A stretch of DNA of 64,000 bases from a virus. The notes under the pieces were generated by a model. That model made no database searches. It was not told the DNA's origin and saw only the letters and a program-made list of their open reading frames with translations. Position 1 is the stretch's first letter. Every line of letters begins with the position of its first letter. Shown here piece after piece: positions 5,428 to 59,995 of this stretch. The DNA lies in the UHGV virus genome UHGV-1366990, one strand, 5' to 3'. Made by a program: the position numbers and the translations under genes.

Positions 5428-6096
5428 ATGCAAGAGATCACTCTCTCCGAACGTACACTTCAGTTGCTGGCCAACTTTGAGACCATCAACCCATCTATCG
5501 TTCTGACACCGGGCAAGATGCTGCGCAGTATTAATGATTCTTCTACTGTGATCGCCGTGGCGCAGATCGAAGAAGACTTCCCGTTTGAGTTCCCGATTCT
5601 GGACCTGACCAAACTTCTGGCCATCCAGCGCCTACCTTCCTTCAAAGGTGCCAAAGCCGAATTCCATCAGGACTACATCCTGTTGAAAGGCGAAAGCTCT
5701 CAGCTGCAATTCTGGCGTTCTGCTAAAGAACTCACTGTTGTTCCGGCTGACACCATTGAACTGCCGTCTGTTGACTTTGAAGCGATCATCACTCCAGAGA
5801 AGATGAAAGAACTGACCCGCGCCTGCTCTACCCTCGGACACAAGACTGTGCGTCTGGTTGCTCAGGGTGGCAAAACTCGCCTGGTTGCAACCACCACTAC
5901 CCTGGACAACTCCAACAACTACACTGTTGAGCTGGGCGAAACCGCGCTGCCGGACTTCGTAATGCCGCTGGATGTTGCCAACCTGAAAATGATCGAAGGC
6001 AACTACACTCTGCGTGCATGTGCTGATCTACAGATGGTGAACTTCCAATCATCAGACGCGACGATCAATTACTTCGTCGGCGCACAGATTGAGTAA
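5428..6096 (+). CDS. 45: Sliding clamp (gp45-like)
   Basis: 222 aa; N-terminal similarity to T4 gp45; followed by clamp loader genes as in T4. Confidence 0.85.
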   Translation: MQEITLSERTLQLLANFETINPSIVLTPGKMLRSINDSSTVIAVAQIEEDFPFEFPILDLTKLLAIQRLPSFKGAKAEFHQDYILLKGESSQLQFWRSAKELTVVPADTIELPSVDFEAIITPEKMKELTRACSTLGHKTVRLVAQGGKTRLVATTTTLDNSNNYTVELGETALPDFVMPLDVANLKMIEGNYTLRACADLQMVNFQSSDATINYFVGAQIE

Positions 6097-6176
6097 TCAA
6101 TCTCCAGCCTGATGCTATAATGTGTGGGCGGGGCGTTCCCCGCCTATTTGAAATGATTCTTCTACACGAGGCTGAA

Positions 6177-7166
6177 ATGTCTAATATCACTATCGTTTCC
6201 GACCAGTACGCATGGGAAAACAAGTACCGCCCTGACAACCTGGACGAGATTATCATCCCTCAAGACGTCCGCGCTAAAATCCATGGCTACATCACCAGCG
6301 GTAACGGCAACATCCCGTCTATGCTGTTCTACTCCCCTCAGCCTGGTACTGGCAAGACTACCTCCGCCCTGGCCGTGTGTAATGAAATCGGTTGTAAGCA
6401 ACCACTGATGATCAACGCATCCCTGGACAACAGCATCGACGTTATCCGTGACCGCGTGATTCAGTACTCTACTGGTGTGAGCGTATTCGGTGGCCGCAAA
6501 GTCGTTATCCTCGACGAAGTAGAGCGTCTGTCTATGGCGGCACAGGAGTCGCTGAAGGGTATTGTGGAGAAGGTCTCCAAGAACTGTTCATTCATCCTGA
6601 CCACCAACGCCAAGCAACGTGTGAACGAACCTCTGCGCTCTCGTTGCCGTGAAATCGACTTTATCTGGAATGAGACCGAGGCTGATGAGGTCAAACTTCA
6701 GTTCATGCGCCGCTGTGCTGAAATCCTTCGCTGCGAAGGTGTTGAGTATGACCCTCCTGTGTTGGCTGCTATTGTCAAGCGCCATTTCCCTGATAACCGC
6801 CGCATCATGGGTGTTCTACAGGATAACGTCACCACTTACGGCAAGATCGACGAACGTGCACTGGCTGTGTTAAAATCGGCCGATATGGGCATGTTGGTGA
6901 ATATGTTGAAGGATAATGACTGGGCTGGGATGAAGCAGTGGGTGACCGACAACCAGAACTATATCACTGAAGACTTCTATTCCCGCTTCTTCCAGTTCTG
7001 TGTACCACAGGATAAAGAGAAGCAAATGTTGGTCCAGAATGAGTCTATCCCTGATCTGGTATGCGTGTGTGGTCAGTCTCAGATTGAACACCGTCAAGTC
7101 GGCGATGTCTGGCTGCATGCTGTGTTTTTCCTGACCAATGTCATGCTCAACATCAAGTGGAAGTGA
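6177..7166 (+). CDS. 44: Clamp loader large subunit (gp44-like AAA+ ATPase)
   Basis: KYRP...SPQPGTGKTT Walker A, SRC motif; collinear with T4 gp44; start at MSNIT with GAGG RBS. Confidence 0.9.
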   Translation: MSNITIVSDQYAWENKYRPDNLDEIIIPQDVRAKIHGYITSGNGNIPSMLFYSPQPGTGKTTSALAVCNEIGCKQPLMINASLDNSIDVIRDRVIQYSTGVSVFGGRKVVILDEVERLSMAAQESLKGIVEKVSKNCSFILTTNAKQRVNEPLRSRCREIDFIWNETEADEVKLQFMRRCAEILRCEGVEYDPPVLAAIVKRHFPDNRRIMGVLQDNVTTYGKIDERALAVLKSADMGMLVNMLKDNDWAGMKQWVTDNQNYITEDFYSRFFQFCVPQDKEKQMLVQNESIPDLVCVCGQSQIEHRQVGDVWLHAVFFLTNVMLNIKWK

Positions 7167-7170
7167 TATT

Positions 7171-7593
7171 ATGGCCGCCCTTGGATTGTTCGATTACCTG
7201 GCTGCTCTGAACAGCAGCAAAGAAAACCTTTTGCGGTCTGATGACCCAGAAGTGTTGAAAGGATTCGACCCGTTTATGACGCGGCGTGGTTTAGCTCAGA
7301 GCAAAGACACTCTAGTGGCTGCGCAACAGATGAATAAGCTACATGCTATCACTCCATGGATGCAATGGTCATATGCCTTTTACACCATTCCGGCTCGGAA
7401 ACGCTACGACAAATGGTCTAAGAAAGGTCCGATTGATCCTGACGTGAAGTTACTCTCCGAGTACTTCTACATCAGCATGGAGAAGGCATCGGAGTACGTC
7501 CGTTTCTTGCCGAAGGAAGTCCTGGCCGAGATACGCGAGAAGATGAGACGTACTGAGCTGAACGCCAAAGCGAAACCGCGCAAGGCTAAGTAG
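7171..7593 (+). CDS. 62: Clamp loader small subunit (gp62-like)
   Basis: PARKRYDKWSKK resembles T4 gp62 PRGKRYGKWAK; conserved position after gp44. Confidence 0.7.
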   Translation: MAALGLFDYLAALNSSKENLLRSDDPEVLKGFDPFMTRRGLAQSKDTLVAAQQMNKLHAITPWMQWSYAFYTIPARKRYDKWSKKGPIDPDVKLLSEYFYISMEKASEYVRFLPKEVLAEIREKMRRTELNAKAKPRKAK

Positions 7594-7622: not shown

Positions 7623-8087
7623 ATGGCGCGTAATACGCTAGACATATTGAATATTTCAGCAGTCAACGATGAGGCCAGCATCGTTGATTGTATGGTTGAA
7701 GTTCAATTGAACCAAGATCGGCCAGGTATATTCCTGGGGATCAAGGAAACACTGAGTCGAATTGGGGTAAACACGCGCCAAGAGCCGAATACTCTGTATC
7801 AGACTTGCCATATTCTTCATAAGTGTGGTAAGTATTATATCGTCCACTTTAAGCATCTATTTATGCTGGACGGGCATTACAACGGATTTAACCGCGAAGA
7901 TGTCCTGAGGATGAACCGAATCATCAAGCTGCTGGAGCAGTGGAACATGGTGAAGGTCATTCATCCTGAGCAGGTCACCGAAGCAGCCGATATGTCTCGC
8001 ATTAAAGTGGTTAAACACGATCAGGTTCCTGAATGGAAGCTGGTTCCAAAATACATCATCCGGCCTACAAAGGCAAAAAGCGAATAA
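7623..8087 (+). CDS. regA: RegA-like translational repressor
   Basis: LYQTCHILHKCGKYYIVHFKHL and EWKLVPKYII closely match T4 RegA. Confidence 0.85.
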   Translation: MARNTLDILNISAVNDEASIVDCMVEVQLNQDRPGIFLGIKETLSRIGVNTRQEPNTLYQTCHILHKCGKYYIVHFKHLFMLDGHYNGFNREDVLRMNRIIKLLEQWNMVKVIHPEQVTEAADMSRIKVVKHDQVPEWKLVPKYIIRPTKAKSE

Positions 8088-8103
8088 CTGGAGTCGCTAT
8101 ATT

Positions 8104-8976
8104 ATGACAACTACATTTTCTAAGAACGTGAATCTGAATCTGGCTTTCGGTAATGCAAAGGGCGACGTCACATCGCCCGACTTTGGTAAGATCCGCAATC
8201 AGGCGAAACTGGTGCTGGAAGAAACTCGTGAACTGCTAGAAGCGGCGTATTTCGACCACGAGGTGAAAATTGAGTTCACCGCATCTCCGCGAGTCCTGAA
8301 AGAACCCGTTGTTGTCGACATCAAAGACATTATGCGCCAGATCATGGATGCCCAGGGCGACATCACAACAGTCAACGACGGTTTGGCTCATATTGCTGGT
8401 TTCGACGGTGACGAATGCCTACAGCGCGTGTATGCGTCTAATATGAGCAAGTTCGTTCGCAATGAAGGTGAAGTTGTTCCAGCGCTGGAGTATTACTATA
8501 ACAAAGGATTCCCACGCGAAAGTCTACGCATCGAAGGGGAATTCCCTCAGGCGTGCATCAAAGTGGTGGACACCATCACTGTCGACAGCAAAGAATACCC
8601 GGCTGGCAAGTTCCTGAAGAACATGGCAACCTTCAAAGAGCCTGACTTCTCTGATATGTTGACCACCGAGCCTAAGCGCCAGATCACCGAAATCATTCTG
8701 ACGGGCACGGCTACCCCAGGTCGACTCGGATGCAACGAACATGCTGGTGTTGCCTACGCGCCGTTCGATTTTATTGACGAGATCGTGGGATACACCAAGA
8801 TGGGTTTCCAGGCGTTCTCTGGCGAAACAGTCGAGAGCTACATTCCCGTGTTTGTTTTCAATGAAGACAACTTCCCAACTCTACCGTTGATCTGGGGTGA
8901 ATGGAAAGCCAACGTCCGTATCTATGTGGCCAGCCCAGTGCAATCATCTATCACCCAACTGACCCGTATCGATTAA
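8104..8976 (+). CDS. Hypothetical protein; N-terminal region weakly MazG/HisE-like
   Basis: 290-aa ORF; EETRELLEA motif; sits where T4 has gene 43. Confidence 0.55.
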   Translation: MTTTFSKNVNLNLAFGNAKGDVTSPDFGKIRNQAKLVLEETRELLEAAYFDHEVKIEFTASPRVLKEPVVVDIKDIMRQIMDAQGDITTVNDGLAHIAGFDGDECLQRVYASNMSKFVRNEGEVVPALEYYYNKGFPRESLRIEGEFPQACIKVVDTITVDSKEYPAGKFLKNMATFKEPDFSDMLTTEPKRQITEIILTGTATPGRLGCNEHAGVAYAPFDFIDEIVGYTKMGFQAFSGETVESYIPVFVFNEDNFPTLPLIWGEWKANVRIYVASPVQSSITQLTRID

Positions 8977-9044
8977 GATATACAGTTATTCACTAAACAA
9001 CAGAGGCTATAATGGCCTCTGTTTTCGTATTCTAAGAGGATACC

Positions 9045-10268
9045 ATGAAAGATAAACCATATGACATCCCATATTGCGGTGTCCGTGAAACCAAAATCAA
9101 ATCAGCCCATCCTATGTTAAGTTCATTCCACCGCCAGCTGGCATATGAATGGATGAGGGATCGTTATGCGATACATGTCAAGAAGGACGTGCAATGCCTT
9201 CCAGCGCCATGGACGGATAATCCGGTATTACGCCAAGTCAAGTTTTGTAACGTGCGGAGAGAGCACGATAGACAGTCTCGAAATTTGATCAATAATATCA
9301 TCCTCAATCAGGATCTCACGCTATCTGACAAAATGTTCAACTGTGTATTGTTCCGCATGTACAACATGTGGGAACCTATACAGGCTTTGGGTGGTCCATG
9401 GACGATCGAAGAATTCGGAAACATAAATCTTGAATGGTGTCGAAATGTTCTTCAGGAATTCGAATCTAAAGGTGGCAAAGTTTTCACCAATGCGTTTAAT
9501 ACAGGCGGTCTGAAACAATGCCTGGCTTTCCCCGAACTAGTTGTCAACCACAAGGAGCATCACTTCGGTGGGATGATGGTGAATCTGATCTGTAAAGACG
9601 GTTCAATCCAGAACATGGATTACAAGGAAGCCAAGGCCATCGCTGAAGCAGAGCCGGACTTCTACACCATCGAAGGTTGGGAACCGTACATGCCAATGCG
9701 TGTCATCCGCTCCCTGAAGGCATTCGTCAACAAACACCCTCATTACTTTGATCGCCTCAGGGAATTTAGCCGTCCCGACTCTGTTTACCAGGCGATGTAT
9801 GACGACATTGAGGGGCTTGGACCATTCTTGGCATACCAGATTTGGGTTGATTTTACATACATCGATGAATATCCATTCAGTGAAAACCACTTCACTATCG
9901 CTGGTCCAGGTTGCCGTGCTGGTATCGATCTGTTATTTTTGGACAAGGACGGCATGACGCATGAAGAATGCATATTCTGGGTTCGTGATCATCAAGATCA
10001 ATTGTTCGCTCAGTATGGGTATAAACGTAATGAATTTTGGTCGGCAGAAGAACCGGAAGACCGTTGCATGAATGTTATGCAGCTGGAGAACATGTTCTGT
10101 GAACTTCAGAAATATACCCGCTGCGTTGAGGCAGTGATGCGCGGGGAGAAACCTCGAGGAAAGGTGGGGTATGACGGGAATGGCAGTGCGTATAAGCAAC
10201 GTTGTGATGAAGTCGTGCTCAAACGTGGTTCCGTCAATTTGCTGGACCGTTTGAAGAAACCTGAATAA
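9045..10268 (+). CDS. Hypothetical protein (407 aa)
   Basis: Long ORF with RBS AAGAGGA; no motif recognised by eye. Confidence 0.65.
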   Translation: MKDKPYDIPYCGVRETKIKSAHPMLSSFHRQLAYEWMRDRYAIHVKKDVQCLPAPWTDNPVLRQVKFCNVRREHDRQSRNLINNIILNQDLTLSDKMFNCVLFRMYNMWEPIQALGGPWTIEEFGNINLEWCRNVLQEFESKGGKVFTNAFNTGGLKQCLAFPELVVNHKEHHFGGMMVNLICKDGSIQNMDYKEAKAIAEAEPDFYTIEGWEPYMPMRVIRSLKAFVNKHPHYFDRLREFSRPDSVYQAMYDDIEGLGPFLAYQIWVDFTYIDEYPFSENHFTIAGPGCRAGIDLLFLDKDGMTHEECIFWVRDHQDQLFAQYGYKRNEFWSAEEPEDRCMNVMQLENMFCELQKYTRCVEAVMRGEKPRGKVGYDGNGSAYKQRCDEVVLKRGSVNLLDRLKKPE

Positions 10269-10383
10269 AGATTCCCTTTACTTCGTTCTTCAATAACTCT
10301 TTTCAACGTATTATTGACCTCACTTAAACGAAGCGCCCTGGCAAACGGGGCGCACATTTGAACTGAAACAGGAAGACTACACC

Positions 10384-12402
10384 ATGTCAGAATTTAAGCC
10401 CTTCGCAGTAGCTGTTAACAACAACGTGCTGGCTATGTCAGCATCTGGTCTGTTCATGACCAACATCGATAAAGATGCTCTGTGGGATCTGTATCTGTCT
10501 TCTTTCCCTGCTGGTACCAACCCGCTCTACCGTGAGCGTACCGAGCACGACTGCACCTGCTGTAAACAATTCATCCGTAACATCGGCGGTGTGGTCACCA
10601 TCGACGCCGACCTGAACGTGATCTCTATCTGGGATAACATTCAGCTGGGTAACGAATACGACGTTGTCGCTGCGGCGCTGTCAGCGTATGTTAAGCAGCA
10701 CGCAATCGTCGACGTGTACTTCAACGACACCAAGAAAGTTGGTGTTGAGTCGAATCACGAAATGAAAGACGGTATTGTCCGCACCTACAACCACTTCCAC
10801 ACCGACCTGCTGGGCAGCTATGTTCTGCGGGCAGATACCATCGCTTCTAAGAAGGGTGAAATCCGCCAGGCGATTGAAGTGTTTGAGCGCGGCCTGCGTG
10901 AACTGTCTCTGGAATCGGCTGAAATCGTTCTGGAATTGATTGACCAGAATTCTCTGTATCGCGGTGAAGAGCACAAAGCGGCAGTGCAGGCGTTCGTGGT
11001 GAACAAGACCCTGTACGAACAAACTGCAGAAGAGAAACGCGCTCTGTGGGCTTGGCGCACTGGCTACCGTGCAAACGGTCATACCCCTCACGGCATTCGT
11101 AATACCGTGATTGGCTCTCTGCTGGTAGACCTCAATGAAGGCCGGGATCTGGAAACCGCCGTGAAGTCCTTTGAAGCCAAAGTCGCTCCGACGAACTACA
11201 AGCGCCCAACCGCGCTGGTCACGAAGTCCATGATTGAAAACGCGCAGAAAGAAGTCGAAGCGCTGGGCCTGACCGATTCACTGGGTCGCCGTTATGCCGT
11301 GTATGACGATCTGACCATCAACAATGTTCTGTTCGCCGATCTGGCAGCTCAGAAGAAGATGGACCCGTTTGCTCAGCTGGCGTCTGAAGTGAAGACTCCG
11401 ACCAAGTCCCTGGACAAGGTTGAAGAGATCACGATCGACGACTTCCTGACCAACGTGTTGCCAAAGGCGCATTCCCTGGAAGTACTGGTTGAAAACTCTC
11501 ACATTGGCAACCTGATGTCCCTGATCGCTCCGGCTACCGCAGGCGCTCCTAACCTGTTCAAGTGGAACAACGGCTTCAGCTGGTCGTACAATGGCGAAGT
11601 GGCCGACTCCATCAAAGAGCGCGTGAAGACCGCAGGCGGTAATGTCGACAGTTTCCTCCGTGTGTCACTGGCTTGGCATAACAACGACGACCTGGATCTG
11701 AGCATGAACGATCCTCTTCACAACCACGTGTATTATCACAACCGTCGTTCGACAACTGGCGCAACTCTGGACATCGACATGAACGGTATGGACGGCATTG
11801 ATCCAAACCGCCGTCCGGTGGAGAACATCTTCTTCAGCGATGAACGCAAGCTGCGTGATGGTCTGTACGAGTTCTATGTCACTAACTTCAGCCAGCGTGA
11901 AACCTGTGATATGGGCTTCGAAATCGAAGTTGAATACAAAGGCCAGACCAAGCGTTTTTCGCATCCTGGCCTGAAGCACAAAGATCGCACTCTGGCTGTT
12001 GTGATTGATGTCCGCGCTGGACAAGTGGTAGACATCCGTTCTACCCTGAAAGACGACGCTCGCTCTCAGGAAATCTGGGGCATCAAGACCTCCGTCTTCC
12101 AGAAGGTACAGCTGGTTCTGAACTCACCAAACCATTGGGACGGCGAGCAGACTGGCAACAAGCACGTGTTCTTCATCCTGGAAGGTTGTGCTAACCCTGT
12201 CGGCACCCGTGGTTTCTATAACGAATATCTGAAGCCGGAACTTGATAAACACCGCAAGGTTTTTGAAATGTTAGGCGGTAAGATTAAAGTACAGCCAAGC
12301 ACTGAGCAGCTGTCCGGTCTGGGCTTCTCTACCACCCAACGCAACCACGTGTTCGTGAAGGTGAGCGGTTCGTTCAACCGCACTGTGAAAGTTGTGTTCT
12401 AA
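10384..12402 (+). CDS. Hypothetical protein (672 aa)
   Basis: Long ORF with RBS AGGAAG; no recognised catalytic motif. Confidence 0.7.
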   Translation: MSEFKPFAVAVNNNVLAMSASGLFMTNIDKDALWDLYLSSFPAGTNPLYRERTEHDCTCCKQFIRNIGGVVTIDADLNVISIWDNIQLGNEYDVVAAALSAYVKQHAIVDVYFNDTKKVGVESNHEMKDGIVRTYNHFHTDLLGSYVLRADTIASKKGEIRQAIEVFERGLRELSLESAEIVLELIDQNSLYRGEEHKAAVQAFVVNKTLYEQTAEEKRALWAWRTGYRANGHTPHGIRNTVIGSLLVDLNEGRDLETAVKSFEAKVAPTNYKRPTALVTKSMIENAQKEVEALGLTDSLGRRYAVYDDLTINNVLFADLAAQKKMDPFAQLASEVKTPTKSLDKVEEITIDDFLTNVLPKAHSLEVLVENSHIGNLMSLIAPATAGAPNLFKWNNGFSWSYNGEVADSIKERVKTAGGNVDSFLRVSLAWHNNDDLDLSMNDPLHNHVYYHNRRSTTGATLDIDMNGMDGIDPNRRPVENIFFSDERKLRDGLYEFYVTNFSQRETCDMGFEIEVEYKGQTKRFSHPGLKHKDRTLAVVIDVRAGQVVDIRSTLKDDARSQEIWGIKTSVFQKVQLVLNSPNHWDGEQTGNKHVFFILEGCANPVGTRGFYNEYLKPELDKHRKVFEMLGGKIKVQPSTEQLSGLGFSTTQRNHVFVKVSGSFNRTVKVVF

Positions 12403-12446
12403 ACCTGATTTGAAATTGTAACCCATTCATCATTGAGGATAGTAAA

Positions 12447-12818
12447 ATGTTTGATAAAGCAACCCGTATGAAACTGCGCTTCGAGTCTAACAAAGGCCTG
12501 TTGTCTGTTGAGCAGGTCTGGGACCTGAGCCTGACTGCCCTGAACGAAATGGCGAAAGGTCTGAGCCGTCAGGTGAAAGCAGCAGAAACCGATGAAGAAG
12601 ATTTCATTGGTACCAAAAGCAACGTTGACTCCGAACTGCAGCTGCGCTTCGACGTTGTCAAGCACATCATCGGCGTTAAGCTGAAAGAACGTGACGACAG
12701 CAGAGAAGCGGCAGAGCGTAAGGCGAACAACCAGGTTATCCTGGAGCTGATCCAACGTAAGAAACAGCAAGAGCTGGAAAGCAAATCTGTTGAAGAACTG
12801 GAAGCGCTGCTGAAATAA
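12447..12818 (+). CDS. Hypothetical protein, charged/coiled-coil-like
   Basis: 123-aa ORF followed by a rho-independent terminator. Confidence 0.6.
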   Translation: MFDKATRMKLRFESNKGLLSVEQVWDLSLTALNEMAKGLSRQVKAAETDEEDFIGTKSNVDSELQLRFDVVKHIIGVKLKERDDSREAAERKANNQVILELIQRKKQQELESKSVEELEALLK

Positions 12819-12842
12819 CCCTGTTGGCCTCGGCCTGAGCAA

Positions 12843-12868
12843 CCCCGCCATGTGCGGGGTTTCTTTTT
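12843..12868 (+). terminator. Rho-independent terminator
   Basis: CCCCGC..GCGGGG stem followed by TTTCTTTTT. Confidence 0.6.
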
Positions 12869-12879
12869 GGACAAAGAAT

Positions 12880-13281
12880 ATGAAACTTGTCATCTGTGAT
12901 TACTGCGGCCTCCTAGCCGAATTCGTCGGTGGTGATGTTCTCTACCCTCATCGCCCTGACCTCCGCAATCTGAAGTTCTGGGTGTGCACTCCATGTGATG
13001 CCCGTGTCGGTTGCCATGCCCATGGCGACGGCAGACAACCTTTGGGAAGGATGGCGAATGCCGCTCTCCGTGCTGCTAAGCAGGAAGCCCATAGATCGTT
13101 TGACCCATTGTGGAAAAGCGGAGAGAGGAGCAGGAGCGACGCTTACAGTTGGCTGGCGCATGAGCTGGGGATAAAGAAGCGTGAGTGTCATATTGGCTTG
13201 TTCGATATCGACATGTGCCGTAAAGTAGTTGCTGTATGCAACCAATTACGGGAAACACAGAATGGCAACCATCAATCGTAA
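12880..13281 (+). CDS. Zinc-ribbon protein (CxxC...CxxC; DUF3268-like)
   Basis: MKLVICDYCG...WVCTPCDARVGCHAHG pattern recalled from prophage zinc-finger proteins; internal ATG of ORF 12850..13281. Confidence 0.55.
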   Translation: MKLVICDYCGLLAEFVGGDVLYPHRPDLRNLKFWVCTPCDARVGCHAHGDGRQPLGRMANAALRAAKQEAHRSFDPLWKSGERSRSDAYSWLAHELGIKKRECHIGLFDIDMCRKVVAVCNQLRETQNGNHQS

Positions 13282-14056
13282 TGAACCCCAAGGTGTTGAG
13301 CTGAAGGGTAAATCTGTTCGCGAAGGTCTAAGGCTATCTCCAGATCTTCTGAAGTCACACATTGCCGAAGTCATCTATGAAGACCGTGAAGTCGGCGGCC
13401 ACCGCGTCATCACCTGCCACTTCAAGATGGACAACGGCTTTGTCGTGTGGGGTAAGAGTAGCTCTACTTCCATCGACCCTGCCAACTTTGATGAAGAGTT
13501 GGGCAAGAAGCTGGCCTATGACAAGACCTTCTCCCAGTTGTGGGAACTGGAAGCCTACCGCGCCGTTGTGGAGAAGCAGATGTTGGAGGTGGCTACCGCC
13601 GATGCGAAGATAGACATCTTCCAGTACATCTCCGAAAGGGGGAAGATAAATCATATGGCTGGGATGGAATTCTTACAAGGCCACGGTCAGTCTTTCGTGT
13701 TCCGACATCCACGAGACCCAAGTCGCGGATTCGGTGCTGAATTTATTCAGACTGACAACGAACGCCACAACGAACAATTCAATGGTAAATCCCGAGAGAA
13801 GGTTGAAGCCTATCTGCGTTCGTTCATGCGCCCGGATGAATTGTATTCTGAACTCGTTGTTCGTCTGGCCAAGACTTGCATGGCGGCCTACAAGGGTGGG
13901 ATCTACTTTAATGCCACCTCTTGGGATAAGATGAGCGCCGAAGAACAGAAAGACTGCTGTGATGACGTCAGGCGGCTCTTGCTGGCTCCGACGGATTATA
14001 CCCCAACCGACCAGAAGGATGCGCTGTTCAAGGCCATCGTTGATTCTTACAAATAA
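13262..14056 (+). CDS. Hypothetical protein
   Basis: Internal ATG (MATINRNEPQ) of ORF 13229..14056; overlaps upstream gene by 20 nt. Confidence 0.55.
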   Translation: MATINRNEPQGVELKGKSVREGLRLSPDLLKSHIAEVIYEDREVGGHRVITCHFKMDNGFVVWGKSSSTSIDPANFDEELGKKLAYDKTFSQLWELEAYRAVVEKQMLEVATADAKIDIFQYISERGKINHMAGMEFLQGHGQSFVFRHPRDPSRGFGAEFIQTDNERHNEQFNGKSREKVEAYLRSFMRPDELYSELVVRLAKTCMAAYKGGIYFNATSWDKMSAEEQKDCCDDVRRLLLAPTDYTPTDQKDALFKAIVDSYK

Positions 14057-14087
14057 CTGAATTATCAAAGTCCTTCAATAACAATAA

Positions 14088-14118
14088 CGCCCAGTATATT
14101 TGCTGGGCGTTTCAATTT
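14088..14118 (+). terminator. Rho-independent terminator
   Basis: CGCCCAG..CTGGGCG stem followed by T-rich tract. Confidence 0.5.
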
Positions 14119-14129
14119 GTACATCACAG

Positions 14130-14135
14130 TATAAT
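14130..14135 (+). promoter_or_regulatory. -10 hexamer TATAAT upstream of 14167
   Basis: Perfect TATAAT 32 nt upstream of ATG; -35 weak. Confidence 0.35.
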
Positions 14136-14166
14136 ACGGCTGTACAATACACCATGAGGTTACATT

Positions 14167-14435
14167 ATGTTTCGTTTGAAATTGAACGACCAAGATGTGT
14201 TCTACAAACACTTCACCTTCCCAGGTGGTGAGGAACATATCAAGATTCAAAAATCTGGTATCCCTATCGGCCATGTTCAGAACGTGGTGATTGATGCTCA
14301 CATCAAATCATCAGACGTTCAGAAGCGGTTGGCTCTATCCAGCGCCTGTGGGAGATCTTTGAAACTGGGCACTTCCTGTTGGATGAGCACATCGGCCTGA
14401 TCTACGGTGATTCTATCACCCCCCCTGGCGCGTGA
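14167..14435 (+). pseudogene. Small gene apparently split by a frameshift (frame 1 from 14167 continuing in frame 3 to stop 14433..14435)
   Basis: Frame-1 ORF 14167..14400 ends in low-complexity tail while the overlapping frame-3 stretch 14295..14435 (no ATG) reads as a natural C-terminus (IQRLWEIFETGHFLLDEHIGLIYGDSITPPGA). Confidence 0.35.
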
Positions 14436-14485
14436 AGACCGCTATTAAATCCCAACAGGGCGTCGTCTCTGTTAAGTGAGATCAA

Positions 14486-14701
14486 ATGATACTGAAAGAA
14501 TGTTTTACCGACCTGAAGGCGACGTCTGAAAGTATTCCGGCTTGCATTCAGAACTATGCTCCAAAGGATGTGCTCTTGGCTCAGCTGGAGCAGTCTCGTG
14601 AGTTTATCAACAATATGCTGGACTCTGTAAAGACGCGCATCGAAGCCGCTGATGAGTCTGAACTTAACCCTTACGCACAAGGCGAAGAGAACAATGATTG
14701 A
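14486..14701 (+). CDS. Hypothetical small acidic protein
   Basis: 71-aa ORF, stop overlaps next start (ATGATTGA); weak RBS. Confidence 0.4.
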   Translation: MILKECFTDLKATSESIPACIQNYAPKDVLLAQLEQSREFINNMLDSVKTRIEAADESELNPYAQGEENND

Positions 14702-16895
14702 ATCATTAGAATTTAAGAATGCGGTTGCGACTGCTGCCCCGTCCAACCATGTAATCGTTGTAGACATTTCCGGCTCTATGTACCGTGCGCTCCCTGAAGT
14801 CCGTAAGCATCTGAAGGAGAACCTGCCTTCCCTGGTGAAACCGGAAGACACTGTGAGTGTTCTATACTTCTCATCCAAAGGCGACTTTGGCACTGTGTTC
14901 GCTGGCCGTCAGATCAATGCAGCATCCGACCTGAGCGAAATCAACAATCTGATTGACCGTTTCCTGCAACCATCCGGCTGTACTGGTTTCGTTGAGCCAT
15001 TGAAACTGGCGATGGACACTGCTCGTGGCCTGAAGAAGCCTGGCTATGTCAACAACCTGGCGTTCATGACTGACGGGTATGACAACTGCTGGCGTACCAA
15101 CGAAATTCTACTGGTTGCTGAGACCCTGCCATTTGCTTTTGATAACATTACATTTATCGAATATGGCTGGTACTGTAACCGCGAACTGCTGGCGCAGATG
15201 GCCGAACGCTCTGGTGCTACTCACGTGTTTGCCGAAGGTCAGACCGAATACCAGACCGAGCTGGAAAACGTGCTGAAGTCATCAGTGCCGAAGGTGAAAG
15301 TTGATGTCCCAGTCATCTACACCCATGCCATCTACGTCGAAAACGGTGTGGCAACAGTACTGGCGGTGCAGGACGATGACTCTCACCCGGTCGGCTATGT
15401 GAGCATCCCTGAGAGCGTCACCAAGCTGTGGGTTGTAAACCCTAACATGATCGACCAGCTTGATGCGCTGGCGGATATCCAGGCGGCATACGTGCTGGCG
15501 TTCTACGGCGTACACATCATGGACGCGGACCTGGTGTGGGCTGCACTGAAGAAAACAGGTGACGTTCGCTTCATCAAACAGTACAGCAACTGCTTCACCA
15601 AGCAGGACTACTCCAACATCAAGAACGATCTGGTTCAGGCGATTGTTGAAGACCAGCTGCGCGGCGTTGACGGTATTGACTATGACCTGGTTCCGGCTGA
15701 AGATGCGACCACCGTCGTTGATGTGCTGACGTACCTGGCTGAAGCTGGTGTGCCTGTTGCTACCAAGCATCCGATGTTCTCCTATAAGAGTATCGGGCGC
15801 GGTACTGTGCAGAAAACCGACGACACCGAAGACAAGCTGGCAGAACAGATCGCGAATGCTCAGTCCAAAGAAGAGCGTAAAGCCCTGGCTCTCAAGCTGG
15901 CAGAGCACGAAGAGTGGAACCCGACGTTCGAACCTACCAACGACCTGGGTGTTGTGCCAATCAGTGATTTGGTCTATAACTTCGAGCGCCCGAACATCAG
16001 TGTGCGTACAATTCAACACGGTACTGTGGCTGTGCCTGAATTCGCACAGAAGAAGTTTGGCCTGCCTGAAGAACTGGACACTTTCCAGTGGCGCAACTAC
16101 ACCATCGTCAAAGACGGTATCATCAACGTGAAGACTCTGCCGTTCAAGGCTGATATCGAAGTTGTACAGAAGCTGATCGAAATGGGCGTCCACGTGTTTG
16201 GTGGTCCGGAAGTGTTTGTCCTGAACCTGGAAAGCGTACCGCTGGTCAACCGCGCCATGGTCAAGAACATCAGTGCTGCTCAGTTCTTTGCGGATAATGT
16301 CCGTCTGGAAGCCCTGAAAGGTAAGCAGAAGGTGCTGAAGTTCTATCGAGACGCCCTGGTTGGTAAGGGTAACGCCAAAGGCCTGGCAGTACAGTACGGC
16401 GCTGAGGCGGCCGAGTTCCTGTCCTCCTACGGCATCCGCGATTACGGCTTCTCACCGAAGACTGAGACCAAAGAGTCTACCGACTTCTACATGAGCCGTG
16501 AGCTGAACGTGAAGATCGCCGGGGCGTCTTCACTACCGAGCATCGCGGCAGTACAGAAGAAGATCGCAGAGAACAAGAAACTCAATGCTGGTGACTTGTT
16601 CATCGCCAATGCTCTGAAAGAGTACGAAGCATTCGTGAAGTCTCCTATGATCACTGCCGTGCCTGAAGCCTTACAGAAACAGCTGATCGAAAACTGGATC
16701 GACGCTGCTGCCAAGGCGGCCATCACCGAAGTCCGTGCCCTGAACAAGACGCTGTCTAAAGTGGTGTATGGTATCGTTGCTGGTCATGGCTGGTTCACCG
16801 ACCTCGACCTGGAAGAGTCCACCATGGAAGTTGAAGTGGATGGCGTGAAGTACAAGGTCACTGCCGAACTGACAGAGAAAGAAATCAAAATCTAA
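14694..16895 (+). CDS. von Willebrand factor A (vWA) domain protein, 733 aa
   Basis: N-terminal VIVVDISGSM (DxSxS MIDAS motif) and downstream MTDGYDN; long C-terminal region of unknown function. Confidence 0.75.
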   Translation: MIESLEFKNAVATAAPSNHVIVVDISGSMYRALPEVRKHLKENLPSLVKPEDTVSVLYFSSKGDFGTVFAGRQINAASDLSEINNLIDRFLQPSGCTGFVEPLKLAMDTARGLKKPGYVNNLAFMTDGYDNCWRTNEILLVAETLPFAFDNITFIEYGWYCNRELLAQMAERSGATHVFAEGQTEYQTELENVLKSSVPKVKVDVPVIYTHAIYVENGVATVLAVQDDDSHPVGYVSIPESVTKLWVVNPNMIDQLDALADIQAAYVLAFYGVHIMDADLVWAALKKTGDVRFIKQYSNCFTKQDYSNIKNDLVQAIVEDQLRGVDGIDYDLVPAEDATTVVDVLTYLAEAGVPVATKHPMFSYKSIGRGTVQKTDDTEDKLAEQIANAQSKEERKALALKLAEHEEWNPTFEPTNDLGVVPISDLVYNFERPNISVRTIQHGTVAVPEFAQKKFGLPEELDTFQWRNYTIVKDGIINVKTLPFKADIEVVQKLIEMGVHVFGGPEVFVLNLESVPLVNRAMVKNISAAQFFADNVRLEALKGKQKVLKFYRDALVGKGNAKGLAVQYGAEAAEFLSSYGIRDYGFSPKTETKESTDFYMSRELNVKIAGASSLPSIAAVQKKIAENKKLNAGDLFIANALKEYEAFVKSPMITAVPEALQKQLIENWIDAAAKAAITEVRALNKTLSKVVYGIVAGHGWFTDLDLEESTMEVEVDGVKYKVTAELTEKEIKI

Positions 16896-16937: not shown

Positions 16938-17261
16938 ATGAGCAGTAAACCAACATATGTTGAAGTCATGCGTCATCTGGCTCAGTACGCCACCGACAAT
17001 CTGAATATGGATCTGTGGCGTGACGATGACAAGCGCAAATTGCTGGACGACGTGGCATCTCAGAACGAGGACGCCCTGGACAAGCTGGCTGGCCTCCGTA
17101 CCAAGAAAGACCTCGGCGGTGATGAACTGGACGCTATCGAAATCGTAATGGACCTCGAAGAAGAGTTTCAGGTCGAAATCGACGACGGCTGGCTGGGTAG
17201 TAAAGGCGATGACCCGACCATGGGTGAACTCGCTGAACTCGTGGTTGCCCTGCGCAAATAA
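16938..17261 (+). CDS. Acyl-carrier-protein-like protein with Glu in place of the phosphopantetheine-site Ser
   Basis: DLGGDELDAIEIVMDLEEEFQVEI aligns with E. coli ACP [24 protein letters not shown]; flanked by terminators. Confidence 0.7.
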   Translation: MSSKPTYVEVMRHLAQYATDNLNMDLWRDDDKRKLLDDVASQNEDALDKLAGLRTKKDLGGDELDAIEIVMDLEEEFQVEIDDGWLGSKGDDPTMGELAELVVALRK

Positions 17262-32549: not shown

Positions 32550-35477
32550 ATGTCAAAGCTAAGTTTCCTCCAGTTCATGCAGGAAAGAGATCAGTTGGAC
32601 GAAGCGTTCAACTCCGCTCCGTATGAGCTGACTATGGGTAAGAAGAACGCAGGCGATGTGTTCTTCACCTTCGTCGACGAAGATGAAAAGGAATACCGTA
32701 TTCAGTTCTATACCCCTCAGGGGCTGGGTAAGAGTGTTCGTCAGGTTTTCATCGGCCAGAAGCGCGGCTCCGTCTATCCTGACGCCATCGCTCGCTTTAA
32801 GAACCCAATGCGCGTTATCGCTTCCATGATCGAAGCGACCAAACAATTCATGGCGACTCCTCTGGGCAAGACCATCGATGGCTTTGCTGTCAACTTCTCT
32901 AAGAAAGCGCTGGATCGTGGGATGACCCTGATTCCTAAGATCATCCGCCAGTCCGGCCTGAAGCAGAAACTGAATGTAATGGACCTGACCTACGCGCCTG
33001 TCCCTGACCGTGGTTATGTGTGGCTAGTTCGTAAGGGTAAAGATCCGGCTCAGGTATTTGACGGTCCGAAGATGCAGGGTATCACATGGGATGATCCAGA
33101 CAAGGTCGGTGACGTTCCGGTTCAGAACAGCGTTGATGGCGTTGTGGGTGGAACTGGTCAAACCATTGTTGTTGGTGTTGATTTCCGTTCTGAAATGGAA
33201 GACTTGGATATTTCGGTGTCTGGAAATGATATCACAGTGATGGATGGGCGCAAACTCGTAGTGTCTTTCACTGATCCCGAGACAGCTAGAATCATTTCTG
33301 GGATGAAAACCCCTTCTGCTGCAATTACCAATTTCATGCAAAAAACGAATCCAGGAAGATACACTGGAAACATCAAAGTTAACAGCACGAGTACCCGCAG
33401 TGGCAAGAAATATGAATTTATTGCTTCCGACTCATCTGGGAAACAATTGTTCAATCTAAACGTAGAAGATTCCAGAAAAACAAACTTGGGAACCGGGGCT
33501 GGTTCTTCTGAAATCGAAGTCAACCGCGAGTGGTACAACAGCTCGGACACTGGTCTGAAGTTGAAGAGCGGGCGAGACCCGATTCGTGGAAACTACGTCC
33601 GCCTGATAAGCGGTTCGAAAGAAGTAGCCGCATTCTATGGTTATGATTTTGACAAATATCCAGACGGGACTGAGGTATCTTGGAATATGAAGCGCGGCTT
33701 CACCAACCAAGACTTGGTCGGTGCGTCCATGACCAAACAGAAGAAAGGCATGTACGATCAGTACACTTTCAAGAAAGGTGCTCAGATAATTCTGGTGGTG
33801 GACGTTGACACCAGCAATGACACCAGCAATGACACCAGCAATGACAACGGTTGGAAACTCGCAAAAGCCGACGCCACTCAACCAATGTTAGTATGGGCGG
33901 GGAAAGAAAAGGGTCGCTTAGTCACGGCAAATATCGCTCCCCACTACAATGAGCCGGGTGTGTATGTTGGCGCATACATGAATGAGAAACCTGTGCGTGG
34001 GCAAAGTGCTGATTTCATTGCTCGTCAGTTGAAATTACCGCAAGTCCCTATCAGTATCCTGAATGATTTCACCATGGCGTCCACAAATTTTTGGAAAGGT
34101 TCTCAGCAGAAGTCCGCGCCAGCTGACTCCAACACCACAATCGGGGCAACCAGTATCGATCAATTGCGTGACAGCGGTTTCATCGCTCGTGTTCTGGGTA
34201 TCATTGATACCAACATTGACCAGAAAGCAAGCTATCTCCCAGGGGAAAGCATTAAGAAGATCGGACAGGCGCGTTATCAAACTAAAGGTGGTCTGGTGAT
34301 CATCGTCAGCTTCGATTCAGTCGATGGCAAGAATCTGACCTACAACGTGTTCTCTGAAATCGAAACTCAGCCTGGTGTCATCTCTGGCGATGCTCGTCGG
34401 GTGGCAAACGAAATTATGGAAACGATCACACACGTGGCCGAACATCAGTATCGTGGCGGATGGGAAATTAGCGCAGTGCCAACAAGCGCTCCATACCCTA
34501 TCAAAGCCATTCGCCGTTCTCGGGGCTGGGGTTATGTGGAAACCGCAAACTGGACTCTGAAAGTGTCCGACGCTGTCCTGAATCGTGTGAAGCCAGGGAA
34601 CACTGCTCTACTGGAACTCATCAAAGAGCCTCCGCGTGGCAAGCACCTGCTGGAAATCATCCCAGAGAAGGGCGACAAGACCCTGATGCTGAAAGATCGT
34701 ATTACCGGGGCCATCTATGGTTCTATCGACCTGAATGCCCAAGGTGCTGATCTGGTCAACTCTGGAACCCTGAAGATACCAAGCAACGCCATGGTGTTTG
34801 GTGAGACTGTCAACGGTATGTCCATTCGGTGGAATGTCAATTTCCCCGAAACAGGAAAATATGCCGGTACTTCTATGATAACCAACGTAACATATTATCA
34901 CGACAAAGGCAAAGTTGCATTCACCCCAATTGTCTCTCAGAAAGGGCGTACCCTGAACAATCCGAAGACATATGAACTTCCTTTAAACAAAGATATGGTC
35001 CAGAGTGTGATTGATGAGATTTCATCAAAAATGGAATATCTTTCCAGAAACCTCCAACAGTTGAAAAGTCAGTCATACAACCCAAACCAGGTGTTCTTGA
35101 ACGATATAACCATCACGGATAAAGGTGAAGTGATTTGGAATGATTACAACTTGTCTGACGGCAAAGTTACACAAATTATGCTGTCCATGATAAGCGCAGA
35201 AAATAAACGCCTGGAGAAAGTAGCAAACACGCCGGATATCAATATCACATTGCCAAAGAAACAAGCTGAAGTGGTAGAATTTATAAACCGGATGATTGAT
35301 ATTGATCTCACCCCTTATGTGAGAACCCCCAAAAACCGTGATGTGGTATTATTTTACTCTTCTGAATTGTCGATAAACCAACTCAACAACATAGAACGCC
35401 TGGGAAGAGAAACAGGAAAATGGTCTCTTCAGTCAAACGGCGGTATGGGTCATGCACTATTTCTGAATGTTTGGTGA
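32550..35477 (+). CDS. Large hypothetical protein (975 aa) containing a (DTSN)3 tandem repeat
   Basis: Long ORF, RBS AGGAG; no catalytic motif recognised. Confidence 0.75.
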   Translation: MSKLSFLQFMQERDQLDEAFNSAPYELTMGKKNAGDVFFTFVDEDEKEYRIQFYTPQGLGKSVRQVFIGQKRGSVYPDAIARFKNPMRVIASMIEATKQFMATPLGKTIDGFAVNFSKKALDRGMTLIPKIIRQSGLKQKLNVMDLTYAPVPDRGYVWLVRKGKDPAQVFDGPKMQGITWDDPDKVGDVPVQNSVDGVVGGTGQTIVVGVDFRSEMEDLDISVSGNDITVMDGRKLVVSFTDPETARIISGMKTPSAAITNFMQKTNPGRYTGNIKVNSTSTRSGKKYEFIASDSSGKQLFNLNVEDSRKTNLGTGAGSSEIEVNREWYNSSDTGLKLKSGRDPIRGNYVRLISGSKEVAAFYGYDFDKYPDGTEVSWNMKRGFTNQDLVGASMTKQKKGMYDQYTFKKGAQIILVVDVDTSNDTSNDTSNDNGWKLAKADATQPMLVWAGKEKGRLVTANIAPHYNEPGVYVGAYMNEKPVRGQSADFIARQLKLPQVPISILNDFTMASTNFWKGSQQKSAPADSNTTIGATSIDQLRDSGFIARVLGIIDTNIDQKASYLPGESIKKIGQARYQTKGGLVIIVSFDSVDGKNLTYNVFSEIETQPGVISGDARRVANEIMETITHVAEHQYRGGWEISAVPTSAPYPIKAIRRSRGWGYVETANWTLKVSDAVLNRVKPGNTALLELIKEPPRGKHLLEIIPEKGDKTLMLKDRITGAIYGSIDLNAQGADLVNSGTLKIPSNAMVFGETVNGMSIRWNVNFPETGKYAGTSMITNVTYYHDKGKVAFTPIVSQKGRTLNNPKTYELPLNKDMVQSVIDEISSKMEYLSRNLQQLKSQSYNPNQVFLNDITITDKGEVIWNDYNLSDGKVTQIMLSMISAENKRLEKVANTPDINITLPKKQAEVVEFINRMIDIDLTPYVRTPKNRDVVLFYSSELSINQLNNIERLGRETGKWSLQSNGGMGHALFLNVW
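33807..33848 (+). repeat. In-frame 12-bp tandem repeat (GACACCAGCAAT) x3.5 encoding DTSN repeats
   Basis: Three exact copies inside ORF 32550..35477. Confidence 0.85.
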
Positions 35478-57723: not shown

Positions 57724-58383
57724 ATGTCCTACTCCCTGAAGGGGCTGATGAAGCGCCCCGTCCACACATTCTTTAAACCACCCGTCGTAAAGGGGATCTA
57801 CCCAGCACGAGGGCAAATCTACTACGTCAAAGGCTCCAATGGTAGCGGTAAATCCACTGTGCCGTCTCAGCTGGCGGAGAGGGATCCTCAGGCGTATGTC
57901 GTGACCCATAACGGCAAGGTCATGCTGACTGTCTGTCCTTCGTTCAACGTGGTCTGTATCGGTAAATATGACAAGTCGAAGTCCAAGGGGGTTGATTCCC
58001 TGAAGGACACTGAGCAGATGTTGTTCGCGTTGTCTATTGCTGACCAACCAGAATACTTGAAATATGATGTGATTTTCGAAGGTATCATTCCATCAACATT
58101 ATTGAGTTCTTGGATCCCCCGCCTGACACGCCCGCCACGTGAATTGGTTGTGCTCTTTATGGACACTCCCCTTGAAACGTGTATCTCCCGCGTTAAATCA
58201 CGTAACGGTGGTGTGGAATTCAATGAAAGTCTGGTGGTCGAGAAGTGGGAGAGAGTTCATGACCATCGTCAACGACATAAAGACTTGTTCCCTACGGTGG
58301 CTGCGGGTATGATGAAGTCTCACGGCCTAACAGTAGACCAGGCTGTGATGGCATTCCTCTGTCGTGATTTTGGGAGTATCTGA
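57724..58383 (+). CDS. P-loop kinase (candidate nucleotide or DNA-base kinase)
   Basis: Walker A GSNGSGKST; 219 aa; immediately upstream of thymidylate-synthase-fold gene. Confidence 0.65.
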   Translation: MSYSLKGLMKRPVHTFFKPPVVKGIYPARGQIYYVKGSNGSGKSTVPSQLAERDPQAYVVTHNGKVMLTVCPSFNVVCIGKYDKSKSKGVDSLKDTEQMLFALSIADQPEYLKYDVIFEGIIPSTLLSSWIPRLTRPPRELVVLFMDTPLETCISRVKSRNGGVEFNESLVVEKWERVHDHRQRHKDLFPTVAAGMMKSHGLTVDQAVMAFLCRDFGSI

Positions 58384-59429: not shown

Positions 59430-59995
59430 TGTACCCGAACCTCGAATTCTTTACGGGGCGCAAGCGCTCCGGTAAGGACTTCTGTTTGGAGTCCCTGATC
59501 AGTTATCACCACTTACAGGGTGATATGGACATCCAGCGCCTTTCGTTCTCAGATGAACTGCGCCGTGTAGCCAACTACATCTACCCATGGCTGCCAGCGG
59601 AGGTAGAGGATGCCGTGAAGGACGTTCCTTACGTGCACCCTGATAACCCCAAGGGCTTAACTCCACGGCAGATCTGGCTTCATCTAGGCAGCGATACGGG
59701 CTTGCGTTACGTACAACCCGATCTGTTCCTGGCATTCTTCAAGCGATTCCAGCTTCCTCTGGTAGAGCAGAACCCCCACGTCCATTATATCGTGAGTGAT
59801 CTGCGTACCCCTCAGGAATATGAATGGGCGCTGAGTACGAAATGTCCTATCACCCGTATTTCAAAGGCCGACCGTGCTGGTATCATAGAGGACGATATAG
59901 AGACTTTCATTGACCAAATGAAAGTGGACTACGAATTCCTCAATCCATTTGATGGTTGGGAACCGTTCGTTAAATTCTACGGAGAACGTAAATGA
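59426..59995 (+). CDS. Deoxynucleoside monophosphate kinase (gp1-like)
   Basis: FFTGRKRSGKD resembles T4 gp1 LSGVKRSGKD P-loop. Confidence 0.65.
   Translation: MMYPNLEFFTGRKRSGKDFCLESLISYHHLQGDMDIQRLSFSDELRRVANYIYPWLPAEVEDAVKDVPYVHPDNPKGLTPRQIWLHLGSDTGLRYVQPDLFLAFFKRFQLPLVEQNPHVHYIVSDLRTPQEYEWALSTKCPITRISKADRAGIIEDDIETFIDQMKVDYEFLNPFDGWEPFVKFYGERK

Follow-up and report, generated by a model that had tools for sequence, protein, structure and literature searches.

The genes downstream of regA in an Ackermannviridae phage genome: probable hypermodification-linked proteins beside a mobile DUF8224 gene pair

The virus genome UHGV-1366990 was analysed here as a window of 64,000 nucleotides (nt), in which six open reading frames (ORF1 to ORF6, positions 8104-14056) directly follow the gene for the translational repressor RegA. 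In this study, we found that these six ORFs are probably the normal regA-downstream genes of the family Ackermannviridae, organized as at least three separate units rather than as one operon, and that ORF1 and ORF2 among them are probably linked to DNA hypermodification. The source phage is an enterobacterial member of the Ackermannviridae whose sequence is partly Kuttervirus-like and partly Agtrevirus-like, in a mosaic pattern. The block itself is an ordinary genomic feature, namely the standard ViI-like segment downstream of regA that is already present in hundreds of deposited genomes.

A megablast search of phage records with window positions 8000-14100 as the query matched 275 records, all from Ackermannviridae or unclassified relatives, and 91 of these matched over at least 80% of its length, so all six ORFs are real genes. 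Enterobacter phage fGh-Ecl02 (genus Kuttervirus) showed 97% DNA identity over the first 86% of the query, corresponding to ORF1-ORF5, and Shigella phage Ag3 and Salmonella phage P46FS4 (genus Agtrevirus) showed 90% DNA identity over 100% of it. The annotated records of CAU_YEP3, fGh-Ecl02 and Salmonella phage ViI have a common order of regA, MazG-like pyrophosphatase, 407-amino-acid (aa) protein, ~672-aa protein, 123-aa protein and zinc-finger protein, followed by variable small genes, a von Willebrand A (VWA) protein and an acyl carrier protein (ACP)-like protein. When the window proteins were compared by tblastn, ORF1, ORF2, ORF3, ORF4 and ORF6 were collinear in all 17 Ackermannviridae loci, and ORF5 had a match in 14 of them. 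The order is kept in ViI, CBA120 and Ag3 as well as in Ackermannviridae of Dickeya, Klebsiella and Serratia. In ViI (Vi01) the counterpart is Vi01_124c-131c (orf00152-orf00161), located after gp45-gp44-gp62-regA, and the same holds for CBA120, Ag3, P46FS4 and fGh-Ecl02. The comparison of the regA-downstream region across related phages, proposed in the initial annotation, thus returned the same order family-wide.

In T4, regA is followed by gene 43, which encodes DNA polymerase. The initial annotation regarded the block as a lineage-specific accessory operon inserted at the former gene 43 site and encoding novel DNA-modification transferases or anti-defence enzymes, an explanation that now appears very improbable. 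The association of the ORF2 family with DNA hypermodification is in line with it, as are the insertion hot spot just downstream, where Agtrevirus phages carry genes for nicotinamide phosphoribosyltransferase (NAMPT) and ribose-phosphate pyrophosphokinase (Prs) between ORF6 and the VWA gene, and the homing endonucleases found between ORF2 and ORF3 in some relatives. However, an order identical in all 17 loci and in the 275 records contradicts an insertion, conserved internal terminators split the block, and the polymerase is located elsewhere across the family. In ViI, some 55 kb separate regA (~89.6-90.1 kb) from the gene for the family-B DNA polymerase (145128-148124), whose neighbours encode the second kinase gp243 and the transferase gp247, and the polymerase, ADDT (gp247), HMUD2 (gp243) and the pyridoxal phosphate (PLP) enzyme are all encoded outside the regA-downstream block. 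Since gene 43 is missing downstream of regA across the whole family, no insertion in this phage lies behind its absence, and nothing has been replaced. A Pfam scan detected no polymerase domain in the six ORFs, and ViI polymerase, gp243, gp247 and gp226 had no tblastn match anywhere in the 64-kb window. PLP, radical-SAM and glycosyltransferase domains, for the folds of which a check had been suggested, were not found in Pfam, NCBIfam and PADLOC scans. Furthermore, the G+C content (~0.46-0.54) is even over the block and its flanks, and composition therefore shows no sign of foreign DNA. The expectation that none of the ORFs has confident homology to structural or replication proteins held.

What distinguishes the window from these relatives is its mosaic structure, with ORF1-ORF5 Kuttervirus-like and ORF6 an Agtrevirus allele. 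DNA similarity to the closest Kuttervirus, fGh-Ecl02, stops at ~13250, which places a recombination junction at the ORF5/ORF6 boundary, and the sequence to the right is ~90% identical to Agtrevirus P46FS4 and Ag3. ORF6 is the most variable position of the block, with 88% identity to the Agtrevirus allele and ~40% to most Kuttervirus counterparts. It matched PF13876 (N4 gp49 / Sf6 gp66 family, Phage_gp49_66; E = 4.6e-12, 46.7 bits, cut-off 27) at residues 38-112 only and phrog_4435, and thus has an N-terminal gp49/gp66 domain and an unassigned C-terminal half. ORF5, in which a zinc ribbon had been seen by eye, is indeed a DUF3268 zinc-finger protein (PF11672, E = 2.4e-36, 125.2 bits, cut-off 28.4; phrog_1934). 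When all proteins of the block were scanned against NCBIfam and PADLOC, the results were negative except for a Cas8b match on ORF5 (E = 0.008), which was dismissed as noise. Unlike in some relatives, the NAMPT-Prs insertion of Agtrevirus is absent from the window and the ORF2-ORF3 gap contains no homing endonuclease. The Agtrevirus insertion is ~2.3 kb long, and at the corresponding site the window (14056-14652) has only two small ORFs (14167-14400 and 14486-14701). CAU_YEP3 has a homing-endonuclease gene (L001 6278-6496) in the ORF2-ORF3 gap, which is 115 nt here (window 10269-10383), and another such gene between those for gp45 and gp44; Marshall and Maynard carry an HNH homing-endonuclease gene somewhere within the matched block.

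The block had also been described as a single operon ending at terminators. A palindromic terminator-like hairpin does follow ORF6, but such hairpins also occur inside, after ORF1 and ORF4, and the block, being divided by them, does not form a single operon. Terminator-like sites in the region numbered 13 as compared to 12.1 expected from shuffled sequence, i.e. without excess, and promoter-like counts were also at shuffled expectation region-wide, so that only the conserved hairpins carry weight. The hairpin after ORF4 was present in 17/17 Ackermannviridae loci and in 20/61 other loci, versus 1/78 in a coding-region control. Judging from the hairpins, there are likely three transcription units, of which the first extends over regA and its preceding genes to include ORF1, the second comprises ORF2-ORF3-ORF4 and the third ORF5-ORF6. 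The literature searched yielded no Ackermannviridae transcriptome covering the block.

ORF2 matched PF18723 with E = 1.6e-83 and 280.7 bits (cut-off 25) over profile positions 5-278 of 281. This family was formerly named aGPT-Pplase clade 1 (alpha-glutamyl/putrescinyl thymine pyrophosphorylase clade 1) and is now named HMUDK_hel. In the local Pfam copy it is described as 5-hydroxymethyl-deoxyuridine (5-hmdU) DNA kinase, helical domain, and PF18724, matched by ViI gp247, as ADDT, amino acid:DNA transferase. A helix-hairpin-helix DNA-glycosylase-like fold has been predicted for the aG/PT-PPlases. ORF2 is 79% identical over 407 aa to ViI orf00160, which has the same place between the MazG-like gene and orf00158. 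Considering this identity and synteny, and that the gp numbers of Lee et al. are ViI orf numbers (gp226 is YP_004327553, orf00226; gp247 is YP_004327568, orf00247), ORF2 is the orthologue of gp160. In ViI DNA ~40% of thymidine is replaced by 5-(2-aminoethoxy)methyl-deoxyuridine (5-NeOmdU) (PMC5889632, PMC11721090), and gp160 (aG/PT-PPlase1) was among the five recombinant lysates that jointly reconstituted this base (PMC5889632). In work with purified proteins, gp67 and gp243 were assigned phosphorylation, gp247 the transfer of serine and gp226 decarboxylation, and the purified 5-NeOmdU reactions used a kinase, gp247 and gp226 (PMC8989533). The purified M6 kinase on its own phosphorylated ~23% of 5-hmdU (PMC8989533). 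The gp160-type protein is the sole member of the hypermodification gene set without an assigned activity, and the kinase fusions, Vibrio clusters and Cys-Glu pair described below frame two hypotheses for it. Thus, the suggestion that the block contains candidates for DNA modification or anti-defence was right in so far as ORF2 belongs to a family of post-replicative thymidine hypermodification, which is anti-restriction (PMC5889632), but novel transferase folds were not found.

Members of the ORF2 family can be fused to the kinase itself. SP10 gp186 is reported to be a fusion of HMUDK_hel with a kinase domain (PMC5889632), and P0508, a 609-aa relative 41% identical to ORF2, has HMUDK_hel fused to kinase domain PF18748. 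Unlike these proteins, ORF2 is standalone, and it is encoded 47 kb from the 5-hmdU DNA kinase of the window (Table 1), whereas in Vibrio relatives the genes are contiguous. In Vibrio phage 207E48.1 (Ackermannviridae, MW824375.1) and in a 141-kb metagenomic contig, the hypermodification genes form one cluster in the order polB, HMUD2, ADDT, HMUDK_hel, further genes, HMUDK1, thymidylate synthase (TS) and dUTPase_2. The same gene set is scattered over three loci in enterobacterial Ackermannviridae, which suggests that an ancestral hypermodification cluster was later broken up. At one of these places in the window (57724-60546, + strand), a 189-aa ORF with a faint kinase-like match accompanies the kinase, the TS homologue and dUTPase_2; the TS homologue of ViI-like phages has been described as a dUMP hydroxymethylase (PMC3184105). 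Beyond 60546 lie genes for a phage ACT-like domain protein, UvsX and a DnaB-type helicase, in the same order as in 207E48.1. As a separate case, a 98-kb metagenomic phage contig (L091 7001-10244) contains two nearby HMUDK_hel paralogues, a 609-aa kinase fusion and a standalone protein of 339 aa that is 27% identical to ORF2.

ORF2 is therefore comparable to ViI gp160 as a full-length PF18723 member and positional orthologue that co-occurs with the 5-hmdU DNA kinase and the TS homologue. From these comparisons we conclude that ORF2 would truly belong to the hypermodification machinery and would act on 5-hmdU-containing DNA together with the kinase, its likely functional partner. It could be a DNA-binding or base-presenting accessory subunit. 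Alternatively, it could be an enzyme that processes phosphorylated 5-hmdU to which no serine is to be transferred, for instance by reducing it to thymine. The label "ABC transporter" given by a depositor to an ORF2 orthologue is unsupported.

The latter role can be stated in chemical terms, although in that form it seems doubtful. The invariant Cys of ORF2 would attack C6 of 5-phosphomethyl-deoxyuridine (5-PmdU), and the exocyclic methylene would be resolved by hydride or another nucleophile, yielding post-replicatively the ~60% ordinary thymine or a minor second modification, as in phiW-14. GPGC290, a hairpin-like motif, and C352-E353 are invariant in the 19-sequence alignment of the ORF2 family, which is consistent with catalysis. 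In phiW-14, thymine is also formed from 5-hydroxymethyluracil (hmUra) in DNA. This phage further converts part of the hmUra already present in DNA (PMC3184105). Thymidine is present in ViI-type DNA (PMC5889632), yet 3H-thymidine is not incorporated by CBA120 (PMC3184105). Catalysis by the clade-2 enzymes depends on an essential Cys that has a Glu beside it, and given borohydride these enzymes form thymidine from 5-PmdU (PMC8989533). The clade-2 transferases ViI gp247 and M6 gp51 (PF18724 ADDT, formerly aGPT-Pplase clade 2) belong to the same pathway gene set as ORF2, the two clades were historically named as sisters, and each has an invariant Cys beside Glu (PMC8989533 for the transferases). 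However, transferase activity is known for clade 2 and none is known for clade 1. Because hhalign detected no similarity between the ORF2 family and gp247, the Cys-Glu parallel remains unproven. In addition, ORF2 gave no match to PF18724 and so was not placed among the amino acid:DNA transferases, Pfam describes its family as no more than the kinase's helical domain, a domain for reductant binding is not visible, and no activity of gp160 has been reported. If true, the conversion of 5-PmdU to thymine would bear on how these phages obtain ordinary thymine without dTTP.

By its sequence, ORF1 is a nucleoside triphosphate (NTP) pyrophosphohydrolase of the all-alpha MazG/HisE superfamily. It matched phrog_2144 "MazG-like pyrophosphatase" (E = 6e-132) and, at residues 2-193, phrog_671 "nucleotide pyrophosphohydrolase" (E = 1.4e-20) in PHROGs. 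A homologue search in a library of 1.84 billion representatives gave 227 relatives, all through residues 1-190, and the N-terminal domain was aligned with 49 distant homologues. Among these 50 sequences Pfam recognized PRA-PH in 15, MazG in 7 and MazG-like in 6. Their profile matched the solved MazG-like NTP pyrophosphohydrolase DR2231 (E = 4e-6), and E40, E43, D82 and D86 are invariant in the alignment, within the motifs LEETRE and DAQGD. The weak MazG-like EExxE signature noticed in the initial annotation is thus real. Only the divergent profile gave this match, as a profile of close ORF1 orthologues found nothing in the PDB; when PDB sequences were searched by phmmer, ORF1, ORF2 and ORF3 gave no meaningful match either. 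ORF1 resembles DR2231 of Deinococcus radiodurans, MazG and HisE (PRA-PH) in its profile and in these acidic metal-binding residues. Unlike them, it has an insertion of ~30 residues between helices and an extra C-terminal domain of ~100 aa. Residues 1-190 constitute the pyrophosphohydrolase domain and residues ~191-290 the variable extra domain, which is strongly divergent between subgroups and is missing from the 191-aa orthologue of Serratia phage phiMAM1. The ViI orthologue, orf00161, is 58% identical.

As for its substrate, ORF1 would most likely be a pool-editing enzyme directed at dTTP and/or dUTP, since a dimeric-type dUTPase is encoded beside the TS homologue and CBA120 takes up no labelled thymidine. 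A comparable dTTPase-dUTPase is induced by hydroxymethyluracil-containing Bacillus phages. By hydrolysing these nucleotides ORF1 would trim the pyrimidine deoxynucleotide pool, so that 5-hmdUTP rather than dTTP would be used in replication and dUMP would be supplied to the hydroxymethylase.

Unlike ORF1 and ORF2, ORF3 and ORF4 constitute an autonomous two-gene module that has its own terminator and is horizontally mobile among many large lytic phages. The module is regarded as autonomous because an ORF4 homologue (phrog_2018, E = 1.4e-47) adjoins the ORF3 family, DUF8224, in 80 of 83 loci, because it is the sole general neighbour outside the Ackermannviridae, and because the hairpin after ORF4 is conserved. 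ORF4 lies directly downstream in all but two loci, and across 66 loci outside the Ackermannviridae no other window gene or gene family is a general DUF8224 neighbour. Hundreds of large lytic phages that are unrelated to each other and infect Proteobacteria, Firmicutes or Bacteroidota carry the module, including CBA120, phiCbK and a Bastille-like Bacillus phage, and as most carriers are not known to hypermodify, the module is unrelated to thymine hypermodification. ORF3, the largest protein of the block, had been among the candidates for a modification enzyme, and its travelling independently of modification genes speaks against that role.

The assignment of ORF3 to DUF8224 (PF26675) comes from precomputed annotation, in which a 100%-identical database copy and all listed full-length homologues carry this domain; ORF3 had no match in the local Pfam copy (which lacks PF26675), NCBIfam, PADLOC or PDB sequences. 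DUF8224 has more than 5347 homologous proteins. Identity is 45-50% between enterobacterial, Caulobacter and Bacillus phages, and in an alignment of 31 sequences (48-96% identical to ORF3) the mean column identity was 61%. Relatives of the N-terminal half only occur in Xp12-like and jumbo phages. One of these, gp09 of Xanthomonas phage Xp12 (L089 3839-5488; 549 aa), is 27% identical to DUF8224 residues 24-400 and is flanked by ribonucleotide reductase genes and by a pair of genes for polynucleotide kinase/phosphatase and DNA ligase. In the ViI record the DUF8224 orthologue (orf00158, 85300-87319; L004 13301-15320) is split into the overlapping Vi01_128c and Vi01_129c, probably by a frameshift or sequencing error. 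No paper mentioning DUF8224 was found in the literature searched, and DUF8224 with its partner ranks with the better-conserved and more widespread phage gene pairs of no known function. The locus supplies a usable structural model and a first comparative definition of this pair as a module.

ORF3 is a multidomain protein in which an alpha/beta domain carrying the invariant DCxCC knuckle lies at the N-terminus, followed by a helical domain, a TerD-like beta-sandwich (~420-560) and a second alpha/beta domain at the C-terminus. In the 31-sequence alignment D56, C57 and C60 of the knuckle and also H137 are invariant, and C59 is nearly so. The sandwich has invariant residues at DDLD (435-438), D463, D465, N467 and E480-N481, and these conserved Asp clusters are suggestive, at most, of a Ca2+ site. 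The C-terminal motif SPNHW...GNKH...RGFYNE is also conserved. When tested for fold, the beta-sandwich agreed with TerD, the Ca2+-binding beta-sandwich of tellurite resistance (PDB 2kxt, 2qz7). Tests at the sequence level were negative, with no Pfam TerD match and a negative hhalign comparison of the ORF3 family with authentic Klebsiella pneumoniae TerD; the resemblance is therefore at the fold level only. Unlike TerD, ORF3 has four other domain-sized regions without known relatives and is not located in a ter operon. Foldseek of the ORF3 model found no PDB match at E <= 0.001, comparison with BFVD returned uncharacterized viral relatives only, and the ORF3 profile had only a marginal RING-finger-like match in the PDB, on the CxCC knuckle (E = 0.09). 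Some records name ORF3 orthologues as enzymes, DNA-directed RNA polymerase in ChubbyThor and serine protease in PcCB7V. Both labels are unsupported, and that ORF3 is either enzyme is scarcely credible.

What the module does can only be guessed at, with low confidence: it may be a ligand- or Ca2+-binding enzyme or effector whose target is universal in cells and belongs to nucleic-acid or nucleotide transactions. We tentatively suggest, as a possibility of low probability, that ORF3 and ORF4 are an unrecognized system, combining a Zn-knuckle with a TerD-like domain that binds Ca2+ or a nucleotide ligand, which manipulates a universal host process or neutralizes a widespread immune signal. It is about equally unlikely that DUF8224 and its partner are a counter-defence or superinfection device, whose TerD-like domain would have Ca2+ or a signal derived from nucleotides as its ligand and which would not take part in replication or repair. 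The TerD-like fold is compatible with such a device, as TerD domains have been proposed to sense ligands in Ter systems, a vWA protein is also part of these systems and Ter components are known from phages (PMC7824862), and in Ackermannviridae a 747-aa VWA protein is encoded 2.2 kb downstream. Horizontal transfer of the module, its unusual conservation and the frequent presence nearby of auxiliary genes (NAMPT/Prs, Sir2 and ligases, for example) also point this way. However, a VWA gene was near DUF8224 in 0/66 loci outside the Ackermannviridae, PADLOC and Pfam gave no TerD match, and hhalign against true TerD was negative. Moreover, the neighbours in those loci are mostly replication and repair genes. 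In 15 of the 66 loci an ATP-dependent ligase that carries a LigD phosphoesterase domain is found, such other neighbours being lineage-limited. Further neighbours resemble, by eye, a primase, a DnaB-type helicase and a family-A DNA polymerase. For K54lambda1.1.1 the feature table did not agree in position with the tblastn match and was left unused.

Several observations weigh against the reading of the block as normal regA-downstream genes with hypermodification-linked ORF1 and ORF2. ORF1 alone has no match in Pfam or NCBIfam, and its AlphaFold2 model from 16 close homologues has a mean predicted local distance difference test (pLDDT) of 43.8, too poor for a fold search. The phage already has dUTPase_2, which would make a dUTPase role of ORF1 redundant; a dTTPase role is a guess. 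ORF1 is not beside HMUDK_hel in Vibrio relatives or in metagenomic clusters, so that its link to ORF2 rests on adjacency in one branch only. As for ORF2, gp160 was neither among the purified proteins that make 5-NeOmdU in vitro nor given a function (PMC8989533). Being absent from those reactions, it may be non-essential or do something else. The comparison of the ORF2 family with the characterized transferase gp247 gave an hhalign probability of 0.2, i.e. no detectable similarity. Finally, DUF8224 is without an informative structural or sequence relative beyond a generic beta-sandwich.

The T4-like context of the block is real, with gp45, gp44, gp62 and regA upstream, and the coordinates and sizes of six co-directional ORFs directly after regA were confirmed (Table 1), at 133 aa for ORF5 and 264 aa for ORF6. 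The last two sizes apply to the starts at ATG 12880 and ATG 13262, and become 143 and 275 aa when the upstream starts of the ORF listing are used. Purine tracts resembling ribosome-binding sites precede ATG 12880 and ATG 13262, and the upstream ATG 12850 is within a hairpin. The intergenic gaps from regA to ORF6 are 16, 68, 115, 44, 61 and -20 nt. The block is therefore tightly packed only in part, with gaps of 68, 115 and 61 nt, two of which contain hairpins with T-tails.

Table 1. Features of the UHGV-1366990 window discussed in the text
Feature	Position	Strand	Remarks
gp45 clamp	5428-6096		upstream of block
gp44	6120-7166		upstream of block
gp62	7138-7593		upstream of block
regA translational repressor	7623-8087	+	last T4-like gene before block; PF01818 E=2.1e-34; phrog_242
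ORF1, 290 aa	8104-8976	+	
Terminator-like hairpin after ORF1	8999-9023	+	11-bp stem, then T-rich tail
ORF2, 407 aa	9045-10268	+	
ORF3, 672 aa	10384-12402	+	
ORF4, 123 aa	12447-12818	+	
Strong terminator-like hairpin closing ORF3-ORF4 unit	12839-12863	+	GCAACCCCGC-loop-GCGGGGTTTC then TTTTT
ORF5, 133 aa	12880-13281	+	from ATG 12880
ORF6, 264 aa	13262-14056	+	from ATG 13262
Palindromic terminator-like hairpin ending block	14086-14111	.	
5-hmdU DNA kinase (HMUDK1)	57724-58383	+	PF18748 E=5.9e-109
Thymidylate-synthase homologue	58383-59429	+	PF00303 E=8e-16
dUTPase_2, all-alpha dimeric type	59992-60546	+	PF08761 E=5.8e-9; second NTP pyrophosphatase of the phage

Further genes of the window were also observed. 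A 975-aa ORF at 32550-35477 (+) had no Pfam match at E <= 0.001 and no tblastn similarity to ViI DNA polymerase. The VWA protein (747 aa, 14652-16895, +; phrog_2426) has an N-terminal von Willebrand A domain, is present in 17/17 Ackermannviridae loci and probably starts ~14 codons downstream of 14652. Its gene is 2.2 kb downstream of the TerD-like ORF3 and is absent near DUF8224 in other phages. In the ACP-like protein (16938-17261, +; PP-binding E = 2.8e-5), D-E-L-D replaces the usual phosphopantetheine attachment motif D-S-L-D, and Glu or Asp is at the position of this Ser in 12/12 Ackermannviridae orthologues examined. The protein thus looks like an ACP fold that would not be phosphopantetheinylatable at the usual site, and it is possibly an acidic mimic.

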